UHGV virus genome: UHGV-1440165
Length of the DNA: 64,000 nucleotides
Strand: one strand, 5' to 3'
DNA from: a virus
Shown here: piece by piece, positions 2,300 through 57,692 of the stretch
Layout: each line of letters begins with the position of its first letter
Position numbering within the stretch: the stretch's first letter is position 1
Program-made: the position numbers and the translations under genes
The notes under the pieces: generated by a model
Database searches by the model: none
What the model saw: only the letters and a program-made list of their open reading frames with translations
Told to the model about the DNA's origin: nothing

Positions 2300-4210
2300 A
2301 TGTCCAACAAAATTGATATTGAACGCAAGTACAAGAAGCTCACTCACGTTGAGCATATCCTACTCCGCCCAGAGCGTCATCTGGGCAGTATTCGTTCGTC
2401 TGTGGGGACGGTCTGGGTGTATGACCCAAACAAAGACAAAGTCATCTTCCGTGACAACTTTGAGTACTCCCCCGCGCTGATCAAACAGTTTGATGAAATC
2501 ATCACCAACTGTGTCGACCACAGCAAGACCCCTGAGGGCAAATCCCTGACGGAAATCACTGTCACGGTTTCCCCTATGAACGGTCAAATCATCGTTGCTG
2601 ACAACGGGGGCATCCCTGTGGTCAAGCATGGTGTCACCAATGAGTGGCTCCCTGAGATGTTGTTTGGCTCGCTCTATGCGGGCAGCAACTTCAACGATGA
2701 AGACGAAGAGTACAACAACCAGAAGTCCGGCGGCCAGAATGGTGAAGGGGCTTCGTTGGTCAACGTGTTCTCAAAGTGGTTCCGCGTTACGACCAACGAC
2801 GGCAAGAAATCTTATGCTCAGACGTTTGAAGACAACATGAGCAAGAAGTCTAATCCGGTCATCAGCAACATGAACAGCCCTGGCACTTCCATCGCATGGA
2901 TCCCTGATTATGCTCGCCTGGGCGTCAAGGGGCTTGACCAGAACAACCTGCTCATGATCTATCGCCGCGCATTCGAAGTCGCTGCATGCAACCCGCGCCT
3001 GAAGATTGTGCTCAACGGCAAGCAAATCCGCATTGACCGCTTTGGCCATTTTGTTGATTACTTCTGTGCTGGCTCCGCTGTCGATGAAACCGGGGACTGG
3101 TCTGTTGCTGTAGCCCCTTCATCCGGTACGTTCATGCATGCTTCATACGTGAACTCAATCGCCACCCACATCGGTGGTCCGCACGTTGATTATGTGGCTG
3201 ATCAGATCGTGGCGGCGATTCGTCCTCAGCTGGTTAAGAAGTTCAAGACTGAGCTGAAGCCAGCGATGATCAAGAACCACATGTCCTTGTTCATCGCTGC
3301 CGACATCAACAACCCGCGCTTTGATAGCCAGACCAAGGAGCGCATGACGACTCCTGTCAGCCAGTTCGGTACATCCTACAAGCCCAGCGATAAGCTGATC
3401 CGCAAGGCGCTGGAGTTCGTTACAGCTGGCCTGAGCAAAGAACTGGCGGCTCTGCGTAATGACCAGGATGATGCCGAGTTTGAAAAGGCCAAGAAGGATA
3501 TCAGCAAGCGCGATTACCGTGAGATTGAGAAGTATTACCCGGCGACTGCCCGTGGCGATCGTAGCGGATGCTCCCTGCTGCTGACTGAGGGTGATAGTGC
3601 CTCCAACCCTATTCTGAACGCCCGTGACACTAAGAAGATCGGGTTGTTCCCACTTCGTGGTAAGTTCATCAACTGCCTGAACGCCCCGCGCTCAAAGGTG
3701 ATGGCGAACGAAGAGTTCAAGAACCTGTGCACAATCCACGGCGGCGCAGTACCCGGTCAGCCGCTTGACATCAGCCGCTATCCACAGACTGTTGTGGCTA
3801 CCGATGCGGACGATGACGGCATTCACATCCGTGGTCTACTGATCACCTTGTATTGCACCTACTGGCCGGAGTACGTCCGTCAGGGCAGGCTCAAGCTCCT
3901 GCGCACCCCTTACATGCGTGTGTGGTGTGGTAAGGTGATGCATGAGTTCATGAACAACGCTGAGTATGAGGAATTCCTGAAGACACCTGATGCCAAGAAG
4001 ATCACGAAGAAGAAATATCTGAAAGGTCTGGGCGGTAACAGCACTGAAGACTTCAAACGTATTCTAAACAACCTGGATGCGTATACTACGACGGTCACGC
4101 TGGACGACGGCTACAAACAGTCACTGAAGAATGGCTTCGGTGATGAGGCCGCCGATTACCGCAAAACCTGGTTTAGCGATGTTTGCCTGTTTGAAACCGA
4201 GGATGAATAA
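2300..4210 (+). CDS. 39: DNA topoisomerase II large subunit (GyrB-like ATPase/TOPRIM; T4 gp39 plus gp60-equivalent in one ORF)
   Basis: 636 aa; GHKL ATPase region (DNGGGIPV), TOPRIM region (LLLTEGDSA ... ATDADDDG); length consistent with a fused gp39+gp60. Confidence 0.9.
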   Translation: MSNKIDIERKYKKLTHVEHILLRPERHLGSIRSSVGTVWVYDPNKDKVIFRDNFEYSPALIKQFDEIITNCVDHSKTPEGKSLTEITVTVSPMNGQIIVADNGGIPVVKHGVTNEWLPEMLFGSLYAGSNFNDEDEEYNNQKSGGQNGEGASLVNVFSKWFRVTTNDGKKSYAQTFEDNMSKKSNPVISNMNSPGTSIAWIPDYARLGVKGLDQNNLLMIYRRAFEVAACNPRLKIVLNGKQIRIDRFGHFVDYFCAGSAVDETGDWSVAVAPSSGTFMHASYVNSIATHIGGPHVDYVADQIVAAIRPQLVKKFKTELKPAMIKNHMSLFIAADINNPRFDSQTKERMTTPVSQFGTSYKPSDKLIRKALEFVTAGLSKELAALRNDQDDAEFEKAKKDISKRDYREIEKYYPATARGDRSGCSLLLTEGDSASNPILNARDTKKIGLFPLRGKFINCLNAPRSKVMANEEFKNLCTIHGGAVPGQPLDISRYPQTVVATDADDDGIHIRGLLITLYCTYWPEYVRQGRLKLLRTPYMRVWCGKVMHEFMNNAEYEEFLKTPDAKKITKKKYLKGLGGNSTEDFKRILNNLDAYTTTVTLDDGYKQSLKNGFGDEAADYRKTWFSDVCLFETEDE

Positions 4211-4211
4211 G

Positions 4212-4658
4212 ATGGAATACCCGCTAACTCACCAGATACAACCAACAGCCGACACGTGTATGTCAACGTGTCTGGCGATGTTGCTTGATCGCCCGGTTGC
4301 CCAGGTTGCCGAAACTTGGCATGAAAGTTTCGCAAATTGGGAAACCACTATCGGTGATGTTCTTTGTATGGAGGGGGTTCCGTTCTTGTACGGGAAGGGA
4401 ATCAACCAAACCGCCACCATATATCATGATTATGTCTATCTTCTTTGCGTGCCAAGTCCGGCAACACCAGGAATATTGCATCAGATCATTATGGATACCC
4501 GAGGCGACAAAGTTGTCATACACGACCCACTGAAGGGTACTGGTAAAAGATACTACACCCTGGATGAAGACGACAAATCTCCTCTGGCGGTGAAACTTGA
4601 AACTTGGGTGGTGGACTACATTGTCGACCCGTATGAAGTAGGAGGTTATCGTGGGTAA
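4212..4658 (+). CDS. Hypothetical protein with C39/papain-like cysteine peptidase motif
   Basis: Q-x6-CMSTCLAML matches the C39 active-site signature (Q..C...CLxM); downstream His/Asp candidates (VVIHDP); GGAGG-like SD 9 nt upstream of ATG 4212. Confidence 0.35.
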   Translation: MEYPLTHQIQPTADTCMSTCLAMLLDRPVAQVAETWHESFANWETTIGDVLCMEGVPFLYGKGINQTATIYHDYVYLLCVPSPATPGILHQIIMDTRGDKVVIHDPLKGTGKRYYTLDEDDKSPLAVKLETWVVDYIVDPYEVGGYRG

Positions 4659-5991
4659 GATGGTTGCCAAGAGCATTACTGTAACGGACTTTGTCAACAC
4701 GGACCACAAGGAGTTCTCGGTGGTCAACAGCATCCGTCAAATCCCTCAGCTGATTGACAGCCTCAAGCCAAGCCAGCGCAAGATCCTCTTCGCGGCTCTT
4801 GAGTACAACAAGGAGGAGATTGTTGACCGCCTTGGTATGTTCGCCGCCGCCCGCACGAACTACAAGTCTGGTGGCGAGAACATGAGCGGCACTATCGTGA
4901 ACATGGCTCAGGGCTTCCCAGGTACGAACAACATCCCGTACTTCGACCGCGATGGCCAGTTTGGTTCTATCATGGGGCGCGAAGCGTCGTCGGCTCGTTA
5001 TATTTCGGTTGCTGTATCTGATGTTATCCGCAAGATCTTCCGTAAGGAGGATGAGGGTATCTTGGAATACAACTACCTTGGTGAAGAGAAACTGGAACCG
5101 AAGTTCTTCCTGCCCATCCTTCCCATGTTCCTGGTGAATGGCATTAACGGTATCGGCTCCGGTTATGCCACCGACACCCCGTGCCATTGTGTTAAGTCCG
5201 TGCTGAACGCCCTGAGAGCACTTCTCCGTGGCGATAACCCGACGGACTTAAAACCGTACTGGAACGGCTACAAAGGAGAGACAGGCTATACTGAGGAAGG
5301 AAGAGCATACAGTCGCGGCATCTTCCGTCGCGTCAATGCCACGACCCTGCATATCACCGAAGTCCCAGTGGGCTGGTTCGCCAAGACCTATGAGACCAAG
5401 GTGTTGCTGCCTCTGTATAAGGCTGGTATCCTCACTGAGTACGCCAACGACACGACTGAAGACGGCTGGGACATCACCGTTGTGTTCAAGCGGGGCGAGC
5501 TGTCTAAGCTGGATGACGATCAGGTTGAGCAGATGTTCAAGTTGTACTCTGCTAACAAGCCTGTTTGGACAGCCTGGGATGAAGACGGTGTTATCCATCG
5601 CTATTCGGGTTGGCAGGATATGCTGCTGCCGTTCTTCAACTATCGCCTTTCCCGCTATGAAGACCGCCGCCAGTACATGCTGAAGGATATGGCCGACAGG
5701 ATCAGCAAGCTGGGTGACCGGGCAGTGTTCATTGAATGGGCGACGCGTGTTGATCTCCGCCAAAAGATTGATGTGCTGAAGTCTCTGTTCATGCAGGATT
5801 ACCCAGACTTCGGTGGTGACCTTGACGAGTTGTTCAAGATGCCGCTGTCATCAATCACCCTGGATGCTCGTGAGCGGCTGCTCAAGCAGATAGAGAACCT
5901 TGAAGCACAGCACAAGGAATTAAGTAAGAAAGAGGACATTGACCTCTACAACGAAGACCTTGATGACCTTGAAAAGGCTCTTGGTCTGTAA
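4651..5991 (+). CDS. 52: DNA topoisomerase II medium subunit (GyrA-like; T4 gp52)
   Basis: SVVNSIRQIPQLIDSLKPSQRKILFAALE and GyrA-like breakage-reunion region; ORF-track start 4651 is GTG, ATG at 4660 is the likelier start. Confidence 0.9.
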   Translation: MGKMVAKSITVTDFVNTDHKEFSVVNSIRQIPQLIDSLKPSQRKILFAALEYNKEEIVDRLGMFAAARTNYKSGGENMSGTIVNMAQGFPGTNNIPYFDRDGQFGSIMGREASSARYISVAVSDVIRKIFRKEDEGILEYNYLGEEKLEPKFFLPILPMFLVNGINGIGSGYATDTPCHCVKSVLNALRALLRGDNPTDLKPYWNGYKGETGYTEEGRAYSRGIFRRVNATTLHITEVPVGWFAKTYETKVLLPLYKAGILTEYANDTTEDGWDITVVFKRGELSKLDDDQVEQMFKLYSANKPVWTAWDEDGVIHRYSGWQDMLLPFFNYRLSRYEDRRQYMLKDMADRISKLGDRAVFIEWATRVDLRQKIDVLKSLFMQDYPDFGGDLDELFKMPLSSITLDARERLLKQIENLEAQHKELSKKEDIDLYNEDLDDLEKALGL

Positions 5992-9317: not shown

Positions 9318-9530
9318 ATGACAATCGCAAGAAGTTACAGAAAGAACTTCAACATCGAAGGGATTGAGTTCTATCACCATTATGCTCAGGACGCCCATGG
9401 CACTGTATGTAACACATACATGCTTGACGGTCGTCCTGTGAGTTCAGACGAGTTCCATCGTGTTCTGCGTGAGTCTACAGAAGAATCCCTTCCGTACATC
9501 ATCAACGCCAACGGATTGATTAAACCATGA
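9318..9530 (+). CDS. Hypothetical protein (first gene of coupled operon)
   Basis: 70-aa ORF, stop overlaps next start. Confidence 0.4.
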   Translation: MTIARSYRKNFNIEGIEFYHHYAQDAHGTVCNTYMLDGRPVSSDEFHRVLRESTEESLPYIINANGLIKP

Positions 9531-9823
9531 CAGACAAAGAGATCATTCAGGTGTGCATCAGGCTGAAGACTTTGAAGCCTCTCTTGCAAGCGCTGCGGTT
9601 CAATGCCATTAAGTTTGAGAAACTGCCTCGCACTGCCGCAACGTACTTTGCCATGAAGTCGGTCGGCGGTGCTATCTTCTTCGAGCACGACATTTACTTC
9701 TACACAAAACTGGATGGCAAAGATTTAGATGATATGGTATTTGCCAACGACTCCGGCGACACCATGAAAACGAAAGTTGAAAATGAGCTTCGCCGTATCA
9801 ATGACGGCCTGAGAGGGATGTAA
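9527..9823 (+). CDS. Hypothetical protein
   Basis: 98-aa ORF, translationally coupled. Confidence 0.4.
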   Translation: MTDKEIIQVCIRLKTLKPLLQALRFNAIKFEKLPRTAATYFAMKSVGGAIFFEHDIYFYTKLDGKDLDDMVFANDSGDTMKTKVENELRRINDGLRGM

Positions 9824-10518
9824 TGATCAACGTATCAATAAACGACCGTGATTTCGTTCGCGACGTCCTGACAAACAACAAAGACCCTCTTGCGTACAAT
9901 GGCAAGAAGGTCACCCTGTTTTGGTCCGGCGGCGTGGACAGCACATACATGCTCTTCTGGCTGCTGGCCCATGGGTACGAAGTACACACGATCTATTGCG
10001 AACTGGAGAACAACTTCTTCAAGGTGAAGCGCGAGAACTGGGCACGCAATAAGATCAGGGAATGGGTGACCGCCAATTCACCGAGGTTGAACAATCATTG
10101 GCATCACAGGAAAGAGCCGATCAGCAGAATAAAAATCCCTTCAGGCGATTTCAGGGCATGCCTGGCGCAAGCCCCTTTGTGGTTGGTGAACACGCAATTT
10201 GTAGGCGGAGAGTTCAGCAGAGAGTTGCCAAGAACTTATGTGATGGCATACGTCAACGGTGACGACGCTCTCCACTGGATCCCGGCCTTCAACAAGATCG
10301 TGGAGGGCTATAACATGTTGGCCAAAGACGGGCATGAGATCACCGTTCTCTTCCCTCTCGCCAGCATGAAGAAGACATGGTTCTACGAAGCCCTGTCGCC
10401 AATCTACGGGCTGATGACCTGGTGTGAATATCATGTCCTGAAGAAGAACTGCAAATGTCCCGCCTGCGTTCGTCATCGTCATGAGCTGTCTGTATTCGAG
10501 CAACAGATCTCTAAGTGA
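9823..10518 (+). CDS. queC: QueC-like PP-loop ATPase (7-cyano-7-deazaguanine synthase family)
   Basis: PP-loop SGGVDST, 231 aa, C-terminal Cys cluster CKCPAC (QueC zinc site is C-x-C-x2-C); resembles E. coli QueC N-terminus (VFSGGQDST). Confidence 0.6.
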   Translation: MINVSINDRDFVRDVLTNNKDPLAYNGKKVTLFWSGGVDSTYMLFWLLAHGYEVHTIYCELENNFFKVKRENWARNKIREWVTANSPRLNNHWHHRKEPISRIKIPSGDFRACLAQAPLWLVNTQFVGGEFSRELPRTYVMAYVNGDDALHWIPAFNKIVEGYNMLAKDGHEITVLFPLASMKKTWFYEALSPIYGLMTWCEYHVLKKNCKCPACVRHRHELSVFEQQISK

Positions 10519-32852: not shown

Positions 32853-33418
32853 TTACGTTCTCCGTAGAATTTAACGAACGGTGCCCAACCATCAAATGGA
32901 TTGAGGAATTCGTAGTCCACTTTCATCTGGTCAATGAAAGCCTCTATATCGTCCTCTATGATACCAGCGCGGTCGGCCTTTGAAATGCGGGTGATAGGGC
33001 ATTTCGTACTCAGCGCCCATTCATATTCCTGAGGGGTGCGCAGATCGCTCACGATATAATGGACGTCAGGGTTCTGCTCTACCAGAGGAAGCTGGAAGCG
33101 CTTGAAGAATGCCAGGAACAGATCAGGCTGTACGTAACGCAAGCCCGTATCGCTGCCTAGATGAAGCCAGATCTGCCGTGGGGTTAAGCCCTTGGGGTTA
33201 TCAGGGTGGACGTAAGGAACGTCCTTCACGGCATCCTCCACCTCCGCTGGAAGCCATGGATAGATGAAGTTGGCAACCCGGCGCAGTTCGTCTGAGAACG
33301 AAAGGCGCTGGATATCCATATCGCCCTGTAGATGGTGATAGCTGATGAGGGACTCCAAACAGAAGTCCTTACCGGAGCGCTTGCGCCCCGTAAAGAATTC
33401 AAGGTTAGGATACATCAT
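32849..33418 (-). CDS. Deoxynucleoside monophosphate kinase-like P-loop protein (T4 gp1-like)
   Basis: P-loop GRKRSGKD resembles T4 gp1 GVKRSGKD. Confidence 0.5.
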   Translation of the reverse strand: MMYPNLEFFTGRKRSGKDFCLESLISYHHLQGDMDIQRLSFSDELRRVANFIYPWLPAEVEDAVKDVPYVHPDNPKGLTPRQIWLHLGSDTGLRYVQPDLFLAFFKRFQLPLVEQNPDVHYIVSDLRTPQEYEWALSTKCPITRISKADRAGIIEDDIEAFIDQMKVDYEFLNPFDGWAPFVKFYGERK

Positions 33419-34464
33419 TCTTTATCACCCAGGAACTTAGGATCAACAATCTTGCGGTCAACCGGGGAATGGGTGAGCGCGACGTTCAGGGACTGGTCAC
33501 TGACGTTATCCAGATTGATGAGCTTACCACTCAGCTTGCACCACAGGCAGTATGCCATATCCAGAATTAACCCGGCATCGGCTCCGTGTTCGTGTAGAGT
33601 TTTCATAACGTCTAACCATGATGAACCTTTGGAAATCACTTCAACGATATCGGCGAACATGACTCGGATACGTGTTTGATTCCCAGGGACACCAAACAAA
33701 ATAGGGGAGAAGTAAGAACCCGTGTGGAATACACTGGTGGCAGGAGTAATTTTACCCAGCTGCTTCTGGCTGACTTCATTGTTGTAATAATGAAGGTTGT
33801 TAGAGAAGAGGCGGTACAGCCCAACTTCCACATTCAGCACCCTAGCGACGATCTCTTGGAGGATGGAGAATTCAATGAAATTGATTGAACTCATGCCCCA
33901 CAGAACATCCTGAGATCGGTTGATGACTGTTAGGTTCAGGCGACCATCCACGATAGAGAACAAAAGGGCTAGGTTACACACCATATCCTTGGTCTTTGGT
34001 TCCCCGCTTTCGTTGGACCAGATCAGACCAGAGTCCGAGTCAAGAGCAGGGTCATAGATGGTGAGGTATGCTTGGCGACTGTTTGGATTTTCTTTCAAGC
34101 GGCGAATCACACTGTCAATCTGACCATAGGCGTACAGGCGCGGTCCATAAGCAGCTCGCCATGTAGTGCCGTTATCAGAGAAGTTGACAGCGCGAGGTAA
34201 TACACGGGAAAGGAACTCAACGTCATTGCGCCCAGCAAGCACCCAGAAAGTCTCACCAATGGCAGCAACAGCAGAAGAGTTGCGCCCTTCCACGGATAAC
34301 CAACGGTCGCGTGGGTTCTGCACGGTGATCGTCACACCGTCAAGGAAGCGGGTGCCGTCAGTGTTGATCTCCGCGTTACCAGGATCAGATTCAATCCCGT
34401 GCTCACGGATAGCCAAGACAGCCTGTTTCAGCATGTCATTGTTGTTTATTGCTTTGATTTCCAT
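33415..34464 (-). CDS. Thymidylate synthase family enzyme (ThyA / pyrimidine hydroxymethylase) with C-terminal extension
   Basis: TS-fold motifs: ETFWVLAGRND, candidate nucleophile in MVCNL, RSQDVLWGMSSIN aligns to TS RSCDVFLGLPFN with Asn at the specificity position; 349 aa. Confidence 0.7.
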   Translation of the reverse strand: MEIKAINNNDMLKQAVLAIREHGIESDPGNAEINTDGTRFLDGVTITVQNPRDRWLSVEGRNSSAVAAIGETFWVLAGRNDVEFLSRVLPRAVNFSDNGTTWRAAYGPRLYAYGQIDSVIRRLKENPNSRQAYLTIYDPALDSDSGLIWSNESGEPKTKDMVCNLALLFSIVDGRLNLTVINRSQDVLWGMSSINFIEFSILQEIVARVLNVEVGLYRLFSNNLHYYNNEVSQKQLGKITPATSVFHTGSYFSPILFGVPGNQTRIRVMFADIVEVISKGSSWLDVMKTLHEHGADAGLILDMAYCLWCKLSGKLINLDNVSDQSLNVALTHSPVDRKIVDPKFLGDKE

Positions 34465-56643: not shown

Positions 56644-56997
56644 TTACGACAGCTGCTTCAGTTTGTAGATCGTCTGATAACACAGCGTCTTGATTTCATC
56701 AAGCGTGTTCTGAAGGTGGGAGTCACACTGCCTGTAGATGCCATCGACGTCTATCACCACGCTGTTGACATAGGAGATAGGGTCTGGGTTATAGAGCTTG
56801 ATGTTCTCAAACGACGGAACGTACTGGCCACCCGCACCGATGTATGCTTCGGTAAACGTGTCCAGCAAGTCCTCCAGTTCCCCGTAGAACTCCCCGAGAG
56901 CTTTGTGCTTGGCGTAGGACGTTGTAACGAAGTGCAGGGCATGAGAGTGGGCTATAGCAAGCAGTCCACGGTTGATGAAAATACTCGCGTTAACCAT
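56644..56997 (-). CDS. Hypothetical protein
   Basis: 117-aa ORF. Confidence 0.45.
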   Translation of the reverse strand: MVNASIFINRGLLAIAHSHALHFVTTSYAKHKALGEFYGELEDLLDTFTEAYIGAGGQYVPSFENIKLYNPDPISYVNSVVIDVDGIYRQCDSHLQNTLDEIKTLCYQTIYKLKQLS

Positions 56998-57086
56998 GAT
57001 TTGTTTCCTGTATTGTGAACCATCTAGTATTTAGTGTTAATGGGTCCATGAGGTACTATATAGAATAATATAACTGGAGAACGAAA

Positions 57087-57692
57087 ATGAAAACTTTTCA
57101 AGACTTTCTGACCGAAGCCGCGCCGCCGATGTTTGTTCATATCAAGGCAGACAAGATCGGCAAATCCACCGAAGACAATATCGGTACTTTCTTGCGAGTT
57201 AGTGTTAGTGGCGACAAAGCCACCTTTGAAACCCCTGACGGTCGCAAGATAATCCTGACGGGTGCTAAAGACATCATCTCGGCATCTGGCCTGAAAGATG
57301 GGCAGTTTGCCAGTGCCCAGATGATTGACAAGGTTGATACTGACACCGCTGTCAAGTACAACAAATCAGGCAAATATATTGACTTGTTGGATGTCAAATC
57401 AGGTATGGGTAATTCCTTTATCTCCATTGACGGTAACAAGCAATGGAAAGAAATGACCGAAGGTGGTTGGTATGCGTATAAAGGCGGTCGCCCCGGCTTG
57501 GCTCGTTATAAGATCGCTATGGTTATGGGACCTCATGCGGGTATGCCATCTCCTGGGGAAGATATTGAATACGAGTTACCGAATGGCGGCAAAGAACGCG
57601 GAACCGTCATGAAACTGAATGGTGCATCCAAGCTGATGGATGTCAAAAACGAAAAAGGTAAGAAAGTACAAGTCAGTATGTATGTGAAATAA
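57087..57692 (+). CDS. IP-like internal head protein candidate
   Basis: N-terminus MKTFQDFLTEAAPP matches the T4 IP capsid-targeting consensus and the 99-329 N-terminus; Lys/Gly-rich 201 aa. Confidence 0.5.
   Translation: MKTFQDFLTEAAPPMFVHIKADKIGKSTEDNIGTFLRVSVSGDKATFETPDGRKIILTGAKDIISASGLKDGQFASAQMIDKVDTDTAVKYNKSGKYIDLLDVKSGMGNSFISIDGNKQWKEMTEGGWYAYKGGRPGLARYKIAMVMGPHAGMPSPGEDIEYELPNGGKERGTVMKLNGASKLMDVKNEKGKKVQVSMYVK

Follow-up and report, generated by a model that had tools for sequence, protein, structure and literature searches.

A QueC-like gene of an Ackermannviridae phage belongs to an essentially phage-restricted branch of the QueC/Cap9 superfamily and probably does not encode a preQ0 synthase

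The stretch of DNA analysed here (the window, 64,000 nt of virus genome UHGV-1440165) carries a gene for a 231-aa QueC-like protein that is best read as a stand-alone ATP pyrophosphatase of the QueC/Cap9 superfamily, and probably not as a preQ0 synthase. We put the probability that it is an active QueC-superfamily enzyme with a reaction other than that of QueC at roughly 0.7. The QueC substrate residues appear to be mostly lost, and a different ATP-dependent reaction is therefore most likely. The preliminary description had pointed to an ORF of QueC length on the plus strand (9823-10518), with the PP-loop SGGVDST and a C-terminal Cys cluster of the QueC type. All of these were recovered: the ORF translates into 231 aa, the PP-loop occupies residues 35-41, and the cluster reads C201-x8-C210-x-C212-x2-C215, i.e. 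the QueC motif C(x)8CxxCxxC minus one residue, a predicted Zn site. The features of the gene and its flanks are as follows (all on the plus strand).

9527-9823: upstream 98-aa gene (PHROG 9302) with no assigned function, not kept beside the QueC-like gene in other lineages
9811-9817: Shine-Dalgarno motif GAGAGGG, 6 nt upstream of the ATG, read from the sequence
9823-10518: gene of a PP-loop ATP pyrophosphatase of the QueC/Cap9 superfamily, 231 aa, member of PHROG 1550 (ORF translation, profile matches)
9925-9945: PP-loop S35-G-G-V-D-S-T41, ATP pyrophosphate-binding loop (sequence, family frequencies)
10009-10035: motif N63-N64-x2-K67-x3-E71, at the place of QueC YxQxHxxE (hhalign mapping)
10162-10182: motif L114-A-Q116-A-P-L-W120, at the place of QueC VPxRN (two independent alignments to QueC)
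10249-10287: Y143-V-N-G-D147-D148-A149...W152-I-P154-A155 (alignments to QueC, family frequencies)
10372-10374: K184, counterpart of QueC K165 in FPLxxxKK (hhalign mapping)
10423-10467: predicted Zn site C201-E202-x7-C210-K-C212-P-A-C215 (motif definitions of PMC13329287)
10526-10867: downstream YunG-like gene (PF24591, E 2.9e-43; PHROG 4814) with no assigned function

The start codon of the QueC-like gene overlaps the stop codon of the upstream gene (TAATG), which suggests that the translation of the two genes is coupled. Scans for promoters and terminators around the gene yielded nothing above the shuffled expectation. The dN/dS values are 0.09-0.12, estimated against orthologues at a dS of about 0.5; therefore, the gene is a functional coding gene under purifying selection. 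With these values, a match to PHROG 1550 (“QueC-like”) with E=2.4e-73 over residues 1-226, and homologues in 196 phage records (tblastn), the gene is far beyond chance. The exact 231-aa protein is without a record in the contig index.

By megablast and tblastn, the window belongs to a phage of the Salmonella/Enterobacter type in the Ackermannviridae, near the Agtrevirus-type phages fGh-Ecl02, CAU_YEP3, EspM4VN, and ChubbyThor; the nearest relative with an annotated genome is the Enterobacter phage EspM4VN. The protein is 88-90% identical to the Agtrevirus-type orthologues (tblastn) and about 65% identical to the proteins of Kuttervirus (ViI, CBA120, ECML-4). The gene belongs to an early-gene block with the order topoisomerase II, DexA-like exonuclease, small ORFs, QueC-like gene, YunG-like gene, phosphoesterase, and then dCMP deaminase. 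The YunG-like gene truly starts at Met16 of its listed ORF, 8 nt past the stop codon of the QueC-like gene; it is present in the Agtrevirus-type relatives and absent at this position in Kuttervirus. The QueC-like gene is widespread in the Ackermannviridae without being carried by all of them. It is present in 196 records, compared with 242 for the neighbouring phosphatase gene, a count that includes 49 matches of <60% identity that may lie outside the Ackermannviridae, and in vB_EcoM-ZQ1 the interval from dexA to the phosphatase gene is without it. It is an accessory gene sited among early, replication, and nucleotide-metabolism genes.

Elsewhere in the window, a 175-aa ORF (4131-4658, plus strand) lies between the genes of the topoisomerase II subunits (2300-4210 and 4651-5991). 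Here CAU_YEP3 encodes an HNH endonuclease unrelated to the 175-aa ORF, which makes the gap between the subunit genes look like a place of variable insertion. Among the records with a Kuttervirus-type QueC-like gene is also the 111-kb OR844942.1 (Enterococcus phage Efm 3-10), in which the gene (95204-95857) scores equally to those of Salmonella phages; this record is probably mislabelled or contaminated.

The core of the protein is of the QueC type, with a Rossmann-like fold, the SGGxDST loop, a conserved Lys, and the four-Cys cluster. The Pfam model for QueC (PF06508) matched with 29.2 bits (cutoff 22) in the PP-loop region only. Searches of the PDB with the single sequence or with a narrow Ackermannviridae profile also returned P-loop matches only, and a wider profile of 44 family members was needed. 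This profile matched, over the full length, B. subtilis QueC (3bl5, E 2.7e-9), Cap9 (9nto_B, E 7.8e-8), and another QueC structure (2pg3, E 1.1e-6). For all other PP-loop families the E-values were at least 2e-3, and nearly all of these matches were confined to the P-loop region. An hhalign comparison with E. coli QueC gave a probability of 93.6% over 182 columns. The PADLOC model for the Cap9-type “QueC” was matched by 43 of the 44 members, and the match was near full length in ten members that were scanned one by one. A better match to TilS, MnmA, or ThiI was sought as an alternative and none was found: matches to TilS, MnmA, ThiI, and TtuA covered residues 29-83 only, were below the cutoffs, and the protein is without the extra domains of these enzymes. 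The nearest families by full-length profile and fold are QueC and the CBASS enzyme Cap9. The protein thus has the full-length homology and the fold of the QueC superfamily (PF06508 in the broad sense), and the label “QueC-like” of the preliminary description is right at the superfamily level. In the AF2 model, confidence is low around the Cys cluster.

Loss of the PP-loop or of the Zn ligands would have argued against this placement; both the loop and the four Cys are kept across 155 diverse members of a family with a mean identity of about 29%. G37, D39, S40, and D147 are found in 155 of 155 members, a Lys at the position of K184 in 154, and each of the four Cys in at least 149. E71 is present in 153 members, N64 in 145, and N63 in 140. 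The residue W34 in front of SGGVDST is typical of PHROG 1550. The signature of the family can be written as [WF]SGGxDST ... NNxx[KQ]xxxE ... [LF]xQxPxW ... Yxx[NG]D[DC]A ... PLxxxxK ... CE-x(6-10)-C-x(1-2)-C-xx-C-x-[RK], and the Cys motif of the wider family is CxxCxxC.

For comparison with canonical QueC, we used the signature of Libby et al. 2026, which includes the Zn motif C(x)8CxxCxxC (PMC13329287); the four-Cys cluster of QueC binds a structural Zn. In E. coli QueC, each of the substitutions Y35A, R99A, Y131A, and Y189A abolishes Q formation (PMC13329287). In the structure of Cap9, Y115 and R86 stack on the two faces of the deazaguanine and D117 hydrogen-bonds with it; these residues are the counterparts of QueC Y131, R99, and D133. 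The equivalent residues of the window protein were assigned from alignments at about 15-20% identity. At this level, QueC Y35 corresponds to L61 (I, L, or V in 139 of 155 members; hhalign and family frequencies), R99 to Q116 (Q in 144; hhalign, and hmmsearch against 3BL5), and Y189, which follows the first Zn Cys, to E202 (E in 152); E. coli C188-Y189 were confirmed as the reference positions. Thus, three of the four residues that are essential in E. coli QueC appear to be replaced. QueC Y131 corresponds to W152, an aromatic residue in 147 members. Further, QueC D133 and C134 correspond to P154 and A155 in the window protein; the replacement by P154 is found in the Ackermannviridae members, and position 154 is variable across the 155 members.

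At the level of motifs, SGGxDS is present (S35-G-G-V-D-S-T41), as is the Zn motif, predicted and one residue shorter. YxQxHxxE is absent, with Q37 replaced by N63 and without H39, and so is VPxRN. In the low-identity alignment of YPDC, the aromatic residue is kept and P-D-C is changed to I-P-A. The HMMER alignment to Cap9 places the RN region 5 residues off in comparison with the alignments to QueC. As a positive control, the QueC domain of phage 9g Gat-QueC was aligned. Its gene cluster is a genuine deazaguanine one, and despite a merely distant relationship to E. coli QueC the domain keeps Y35, VPARN, YPD, and C-Y. The window protein and E. coli QueC have the length of 231 aa, the PP-loop fold, SGGxDST, the Lys (K184 and K165, respectively), and a C-terminal four-Cys cluster of near-equal spacing in common.

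Most members outside the Ackermannviridae have an acidic residue 2 or 3 positions past the aromatic residue at the Y131 position. Because the aromatic residue is kept and an acidic residue is near, a purine-like or deazapurine-like first substrate is possible for the wider family. The members of the Noxifer type (Pseudomonas phage Noxifer, L061:6001-6981) keep a QueC-like “CGQPH...E”, in contrast to the “NNxxKxxxE” of the main phage clade, and from their sequences they may stand between QueC and the phage clade in evolution.

When 1.84 billion cluster representatives were searched with a profile, 1147 relatives were retrieved with E<=1e-3, and the stricter limit of E<=1e-10 left 475; the 1147 are clusters at 50% identity. 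Most relatives have 180-300 aa and are aligned over nearly their full length, and the PHROG 1550 profile was matched by 44 of 44 diverse ones. The C-terminal extensions of long members look acidic or disordered, and no Pfam domains were found in them. Members occur in the Ackermannviridae, including the Vibrio genus Campanilevirus, in jumbo phages of Pseudomonas, Ralstonia, and Burkholderia, in T4-like viral contigs, and in the mycobacteriophages Muddy and FF47. A pattern scan detected 67 loci in viral contigs, compared with 5 in a set with one genome for each of 185,579 species, and these 5 lie mostly on contigs of Clostridia metagenome-assembled genomes. PHROG 1550 is therefore essentially phage-restricted.

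The preliminary description had noted that FolE, QueD, QueE, and DpdA are lacking in the 64 kb, and had asked for a genome-wide search for DpdA-like genes. In agreement with that observation, phmmer queries with phage 9g DpdA, FolE, QueD, QueE, and Gat-QueC gave no match at E<=10 when the window and the complete EspM4VN genome, both translated in six frames, were searched; for DpdA, whose families are divergent, this result applies to one query type, that of phage 9g. The annotation of EspM4VN names no DpdA, FolE, QueD, or QueE. In ten mid-size ORFs of the window without assigned function, Pfam detected no TGT, PTPS, radical-SAM, or GTP cyclohydrolase domains. Canonical queC adjoins queD or queE in about 1/4 to 1/3 of genomes (PMC13329287). 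In contrast, the phage family is not linked to queD, queE, or folE, and no 7-deazaguanine pathway gene was found within 6 kb on either side of the family member in 52 diverse viral loci.

The phages ViI and CBA120 both carry the QueC-like gene, and their DNA contains the four canonical nucleosides and 5-NeOmdU only (PMC5889632). With these published data and no match to the DpdA of phage 9g, the link to 7-deazaguanine DNA modification that had been implied is not supported. A role in 5-NeOmdU synthesis was also considered and rejected: the reconstitution of this modification used five other ViI gene products (PMC5889632), and the family is present in unrelated phages such as Muddy and jumbo phages of the nucleus-forming type. 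The window itself encodes a 349-aa protein of the thymidylate synthase family (33415-34464, minus strand; PF00303, E 8e-16), which by position and family is likely the dUMP hydroxymethylase of the 5-NeOmdU pathway of Ackermannviridae.

No conserved partner gene was found across the 52 viral loci. The family genes of other phages tend to sit among genes for SNF2 and other helicases, PolB, RecA-like proteins (possibly of the UvsX type), dCMP deaminase, and Nudix hydrolases. An apparent shared “helicase” partner in 18 of the 52 loci turned out to be an artefact, in which unrelated ATPases and helicases had been merged via inteins. Intein-bearing ATPase or helicase genes, with Hint and LAGLIDADG-like inserts, lie beside the QueC-like gene in three metagenomic viral loci (L026:6442-8475, L049:2818-5652, L063:5719-8202). 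In Muddy, the gene sits alone and moron-like between the genes of the major tail protein and the tail assembly chaperone. Hutinet et al. 2019 drew attention to the QueC-like proteins that ECML-4 and Muddy encode as singletons and regarded them as probably another subfamily of N-type ATP-pyrophosphatases (PMC6884629). The proteins of ECML-4 (an Escherichia phage of the Ackermannviridae) and Muddy (gp16) were recovered by tblastn with family members, and they belong to the same family as the window gene, with nothing essentially different. Libby et al. 2026 describe no phage cluster (PMC13329287), and a literature search found no report of a tested function for the phage family.

Work of 2025-2026 on Cap9 and QatC showed that the QueC fold has been repurposed in immunity, where it serves to modify proteins. 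QatC is QueC-like, its substrate residues are not conserved, and it has no ATP-PPase activity with CDG (PMC13376578). It shares with the window protein a QueC-like scaffold with remodelled substrate residues and sets a precedent for QueC folds in which CDG is not used. It differs in its size (about 400 aa), its essential N- and C-terminal extensions, and its motif C(x)19CGxC; it is encoded together with qatA, qatB, and qatD, which are lacking as neighbours of the window gene, and the QatC model matched only 7 of the 44 family members, weakly. Cap9 of type IV CBASS (PDB 9NTO) has in common with the window protein the C-E at the first Zn Cys, the Cys cluster, and the Lys. In contrast, its base-stacking R86 is Gln in the phage family, and the Asp of its YxDC is not conserved in the Ackermannviridae clade. 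Of the Cap9 signature, Y/FxQ(x)5E, RN, H(x)4YxDC, and CE(x)6CxxCxxC, the window protein lacks RN and the Asp of YxDC. Cap9 is part of a defence operon with a CD-NTase and Cap10 (TGT-like), whereas the window gene is phage-encoded and has phage genes as neighbours.

The proposed chemistry is that of the family to which the protein belongs. Like every characterised member of the superfamily, the protein would bind ATP-Mg. Following the uniform chemistry of PP-loop ATP pyrophosphatases, it would adenylate a carboxylate or carbonyl oxygen of the first substrate and release PPi; ammonia or an amine, as the nitrogen nucleophile, would then displace AMP. Because the deazaguanine-contact residues appear to be replaced and no companion 7-deazaguanine gene was found, the first substrate would not be 7-carboxy-7-deazaguanine, the product would not be preQ0, and the gene would stand outside any 7-deazaguanine DNA modification pathway. 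The enzyme would have no conserved phage partner, and its substrate would be a metabolite or macromolecule that is general or supplied by the host. Three options had been left by the preliminary description. QueC activity on a host-made precursor is disfavoured by the apparent replacement of Y35, R99, D133, and Y189, and another substrate or a different role is favoured.

The disfavoured option would make the protein a genuine, very divergent QueC that converts host-made 7-carboxy-7-deazaguanine to preQ0, for queuosine in tRNA or for an unrecognised DNA transglycosylase. Its fold, P-loop, Lys, and Cys cluster are of the QueC type, the gathering score of PF06508 is passed, and an aromatic residue is kept at the Y131 position. 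Enterobacterial hosts make CDG, and EspM4VN carries tRNA-Tyr and tRNA-Asn of the Q family. These arguments are outweighed by the loss of Y35, R99, Y189, and the base-binding D133, all of which the QueC domain of phage 9g keeps, by a score of 20 bits for the QueC equivalog TIGR00364, far below its cutoff of 150.3, and by searches that found no DpdA, FolE, QueD, or QueE in the window, in the EspM4VN genome, or beside the 52 family loci. Moreover, the host already has a QueC, and the family is present in Muddy, whose mycobacterial host is not known to have a queuosine pathway. The DNA of ViI and CBA120 contains no extra dG-derived nucleoside (PMC5889632), and we regard a genuine QueC as very unlikely. 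The tRNA genes of EspM4VN (record positions 56911-57672; L003:6911-7672) encode tRNA-Ser, tRNA-Tyr, and tRNA-Asn, and the occurrence of the latter two, with the GUN anticodons of the queuosine family, together with a QueC-like gene is a coincidence; no tRNA genes were found in the window.

Alternatively, the protein could be a ligase in the manner of Cap9 or QatC, which activates a carboxylated base or another acid by adenylation and attaches it to the N-terminal amine of a protein of the phage or the host, possibly subverting deazaguanylation-dependent immunity (type IV CBASS, Qat). This is unlikely, given that the genes of Cap9 and QatC each adjoin that of the protein substrate and no conserved neighbour exists here, that the base-stacking Arg of Cap9 is Gln in 144 of the 155 members, and that the family profile matches QueC and Cap9 with similar scores, so that the closeness to Cap9 may reflect small size only. 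In addition, type IV CBASS is probably rare; the phage family, with its 1147 clusters, is very widespread. A modifier of nucleic-acid bases in the manner of TilS, ThiI, TtuA, or MnmA, which would adenylate a base carbonyl of tRNA or DNA for subsequent amination or thiolation, is quite unlikely as well. The matches to these enzymes are restricted to the P-loop and below the cutoffs, TM-scores to TtuA are about 0.45, the protein has little beyond the catalytic core and no THUMP, PUA, or TilS C-terminal RNA-binding domain, and outside the four-Cys cluster it has no conserved Cys for a persulfide carrier or a third Fe-S ligand. That the gene is dispensable in some close relatives would fit a relic that has lost catalysis or a protein whose role is purely structural or regulatory, but with an ATP loop, D147, K184, and Cys cluster that are near-invariant in so divergent a family, and with a dN/dS of about 0.1, this can be considered extremely improbable. 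An active enzyme with a reaction other than that of QueC thus remains the preferred reading.

The gene of the window itself is an ordinary orthologue of a gene found in about 200 sequenced phages, and that the family may not be QueC was already suspected for the ECML-4 orthologue (Hutinet et al. 2019, PMC6884629). New here are the residue-level comparison, which from the alignments appears to exclude a QueC function, the data on how large and how phage-restricted the family is, and the lack of a partner in the gene neighbourhoods. One rather improbable view makes PHROG 1550 a third branch of QueC/Cap9 proteins, large and confined to phages, that performs a Cap9-like conjugation, in which a carboxylated base or metabolite is adenylated and moved to an amine of a protein or small molecule, or that disarms deazaguanylation-dependent immunity (type IV CBASS, Qat); if true, either role would be a new phage-encoded chemistry. 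The pipeline labels “QueC-like queuosine biosynthesis” and “7-cyano-7-deazaguanine synthase” are misleading, because Ackermannviridae, jumbo phages, and Muddy are wrongly read as makers of 7-deazaguanines, and the residue-level comparison argues against 7-deazaguanine synthesis by these phages. As a phage-side branch of a repurposed QueC fold, the family would be a reasonable target for biochemistry.
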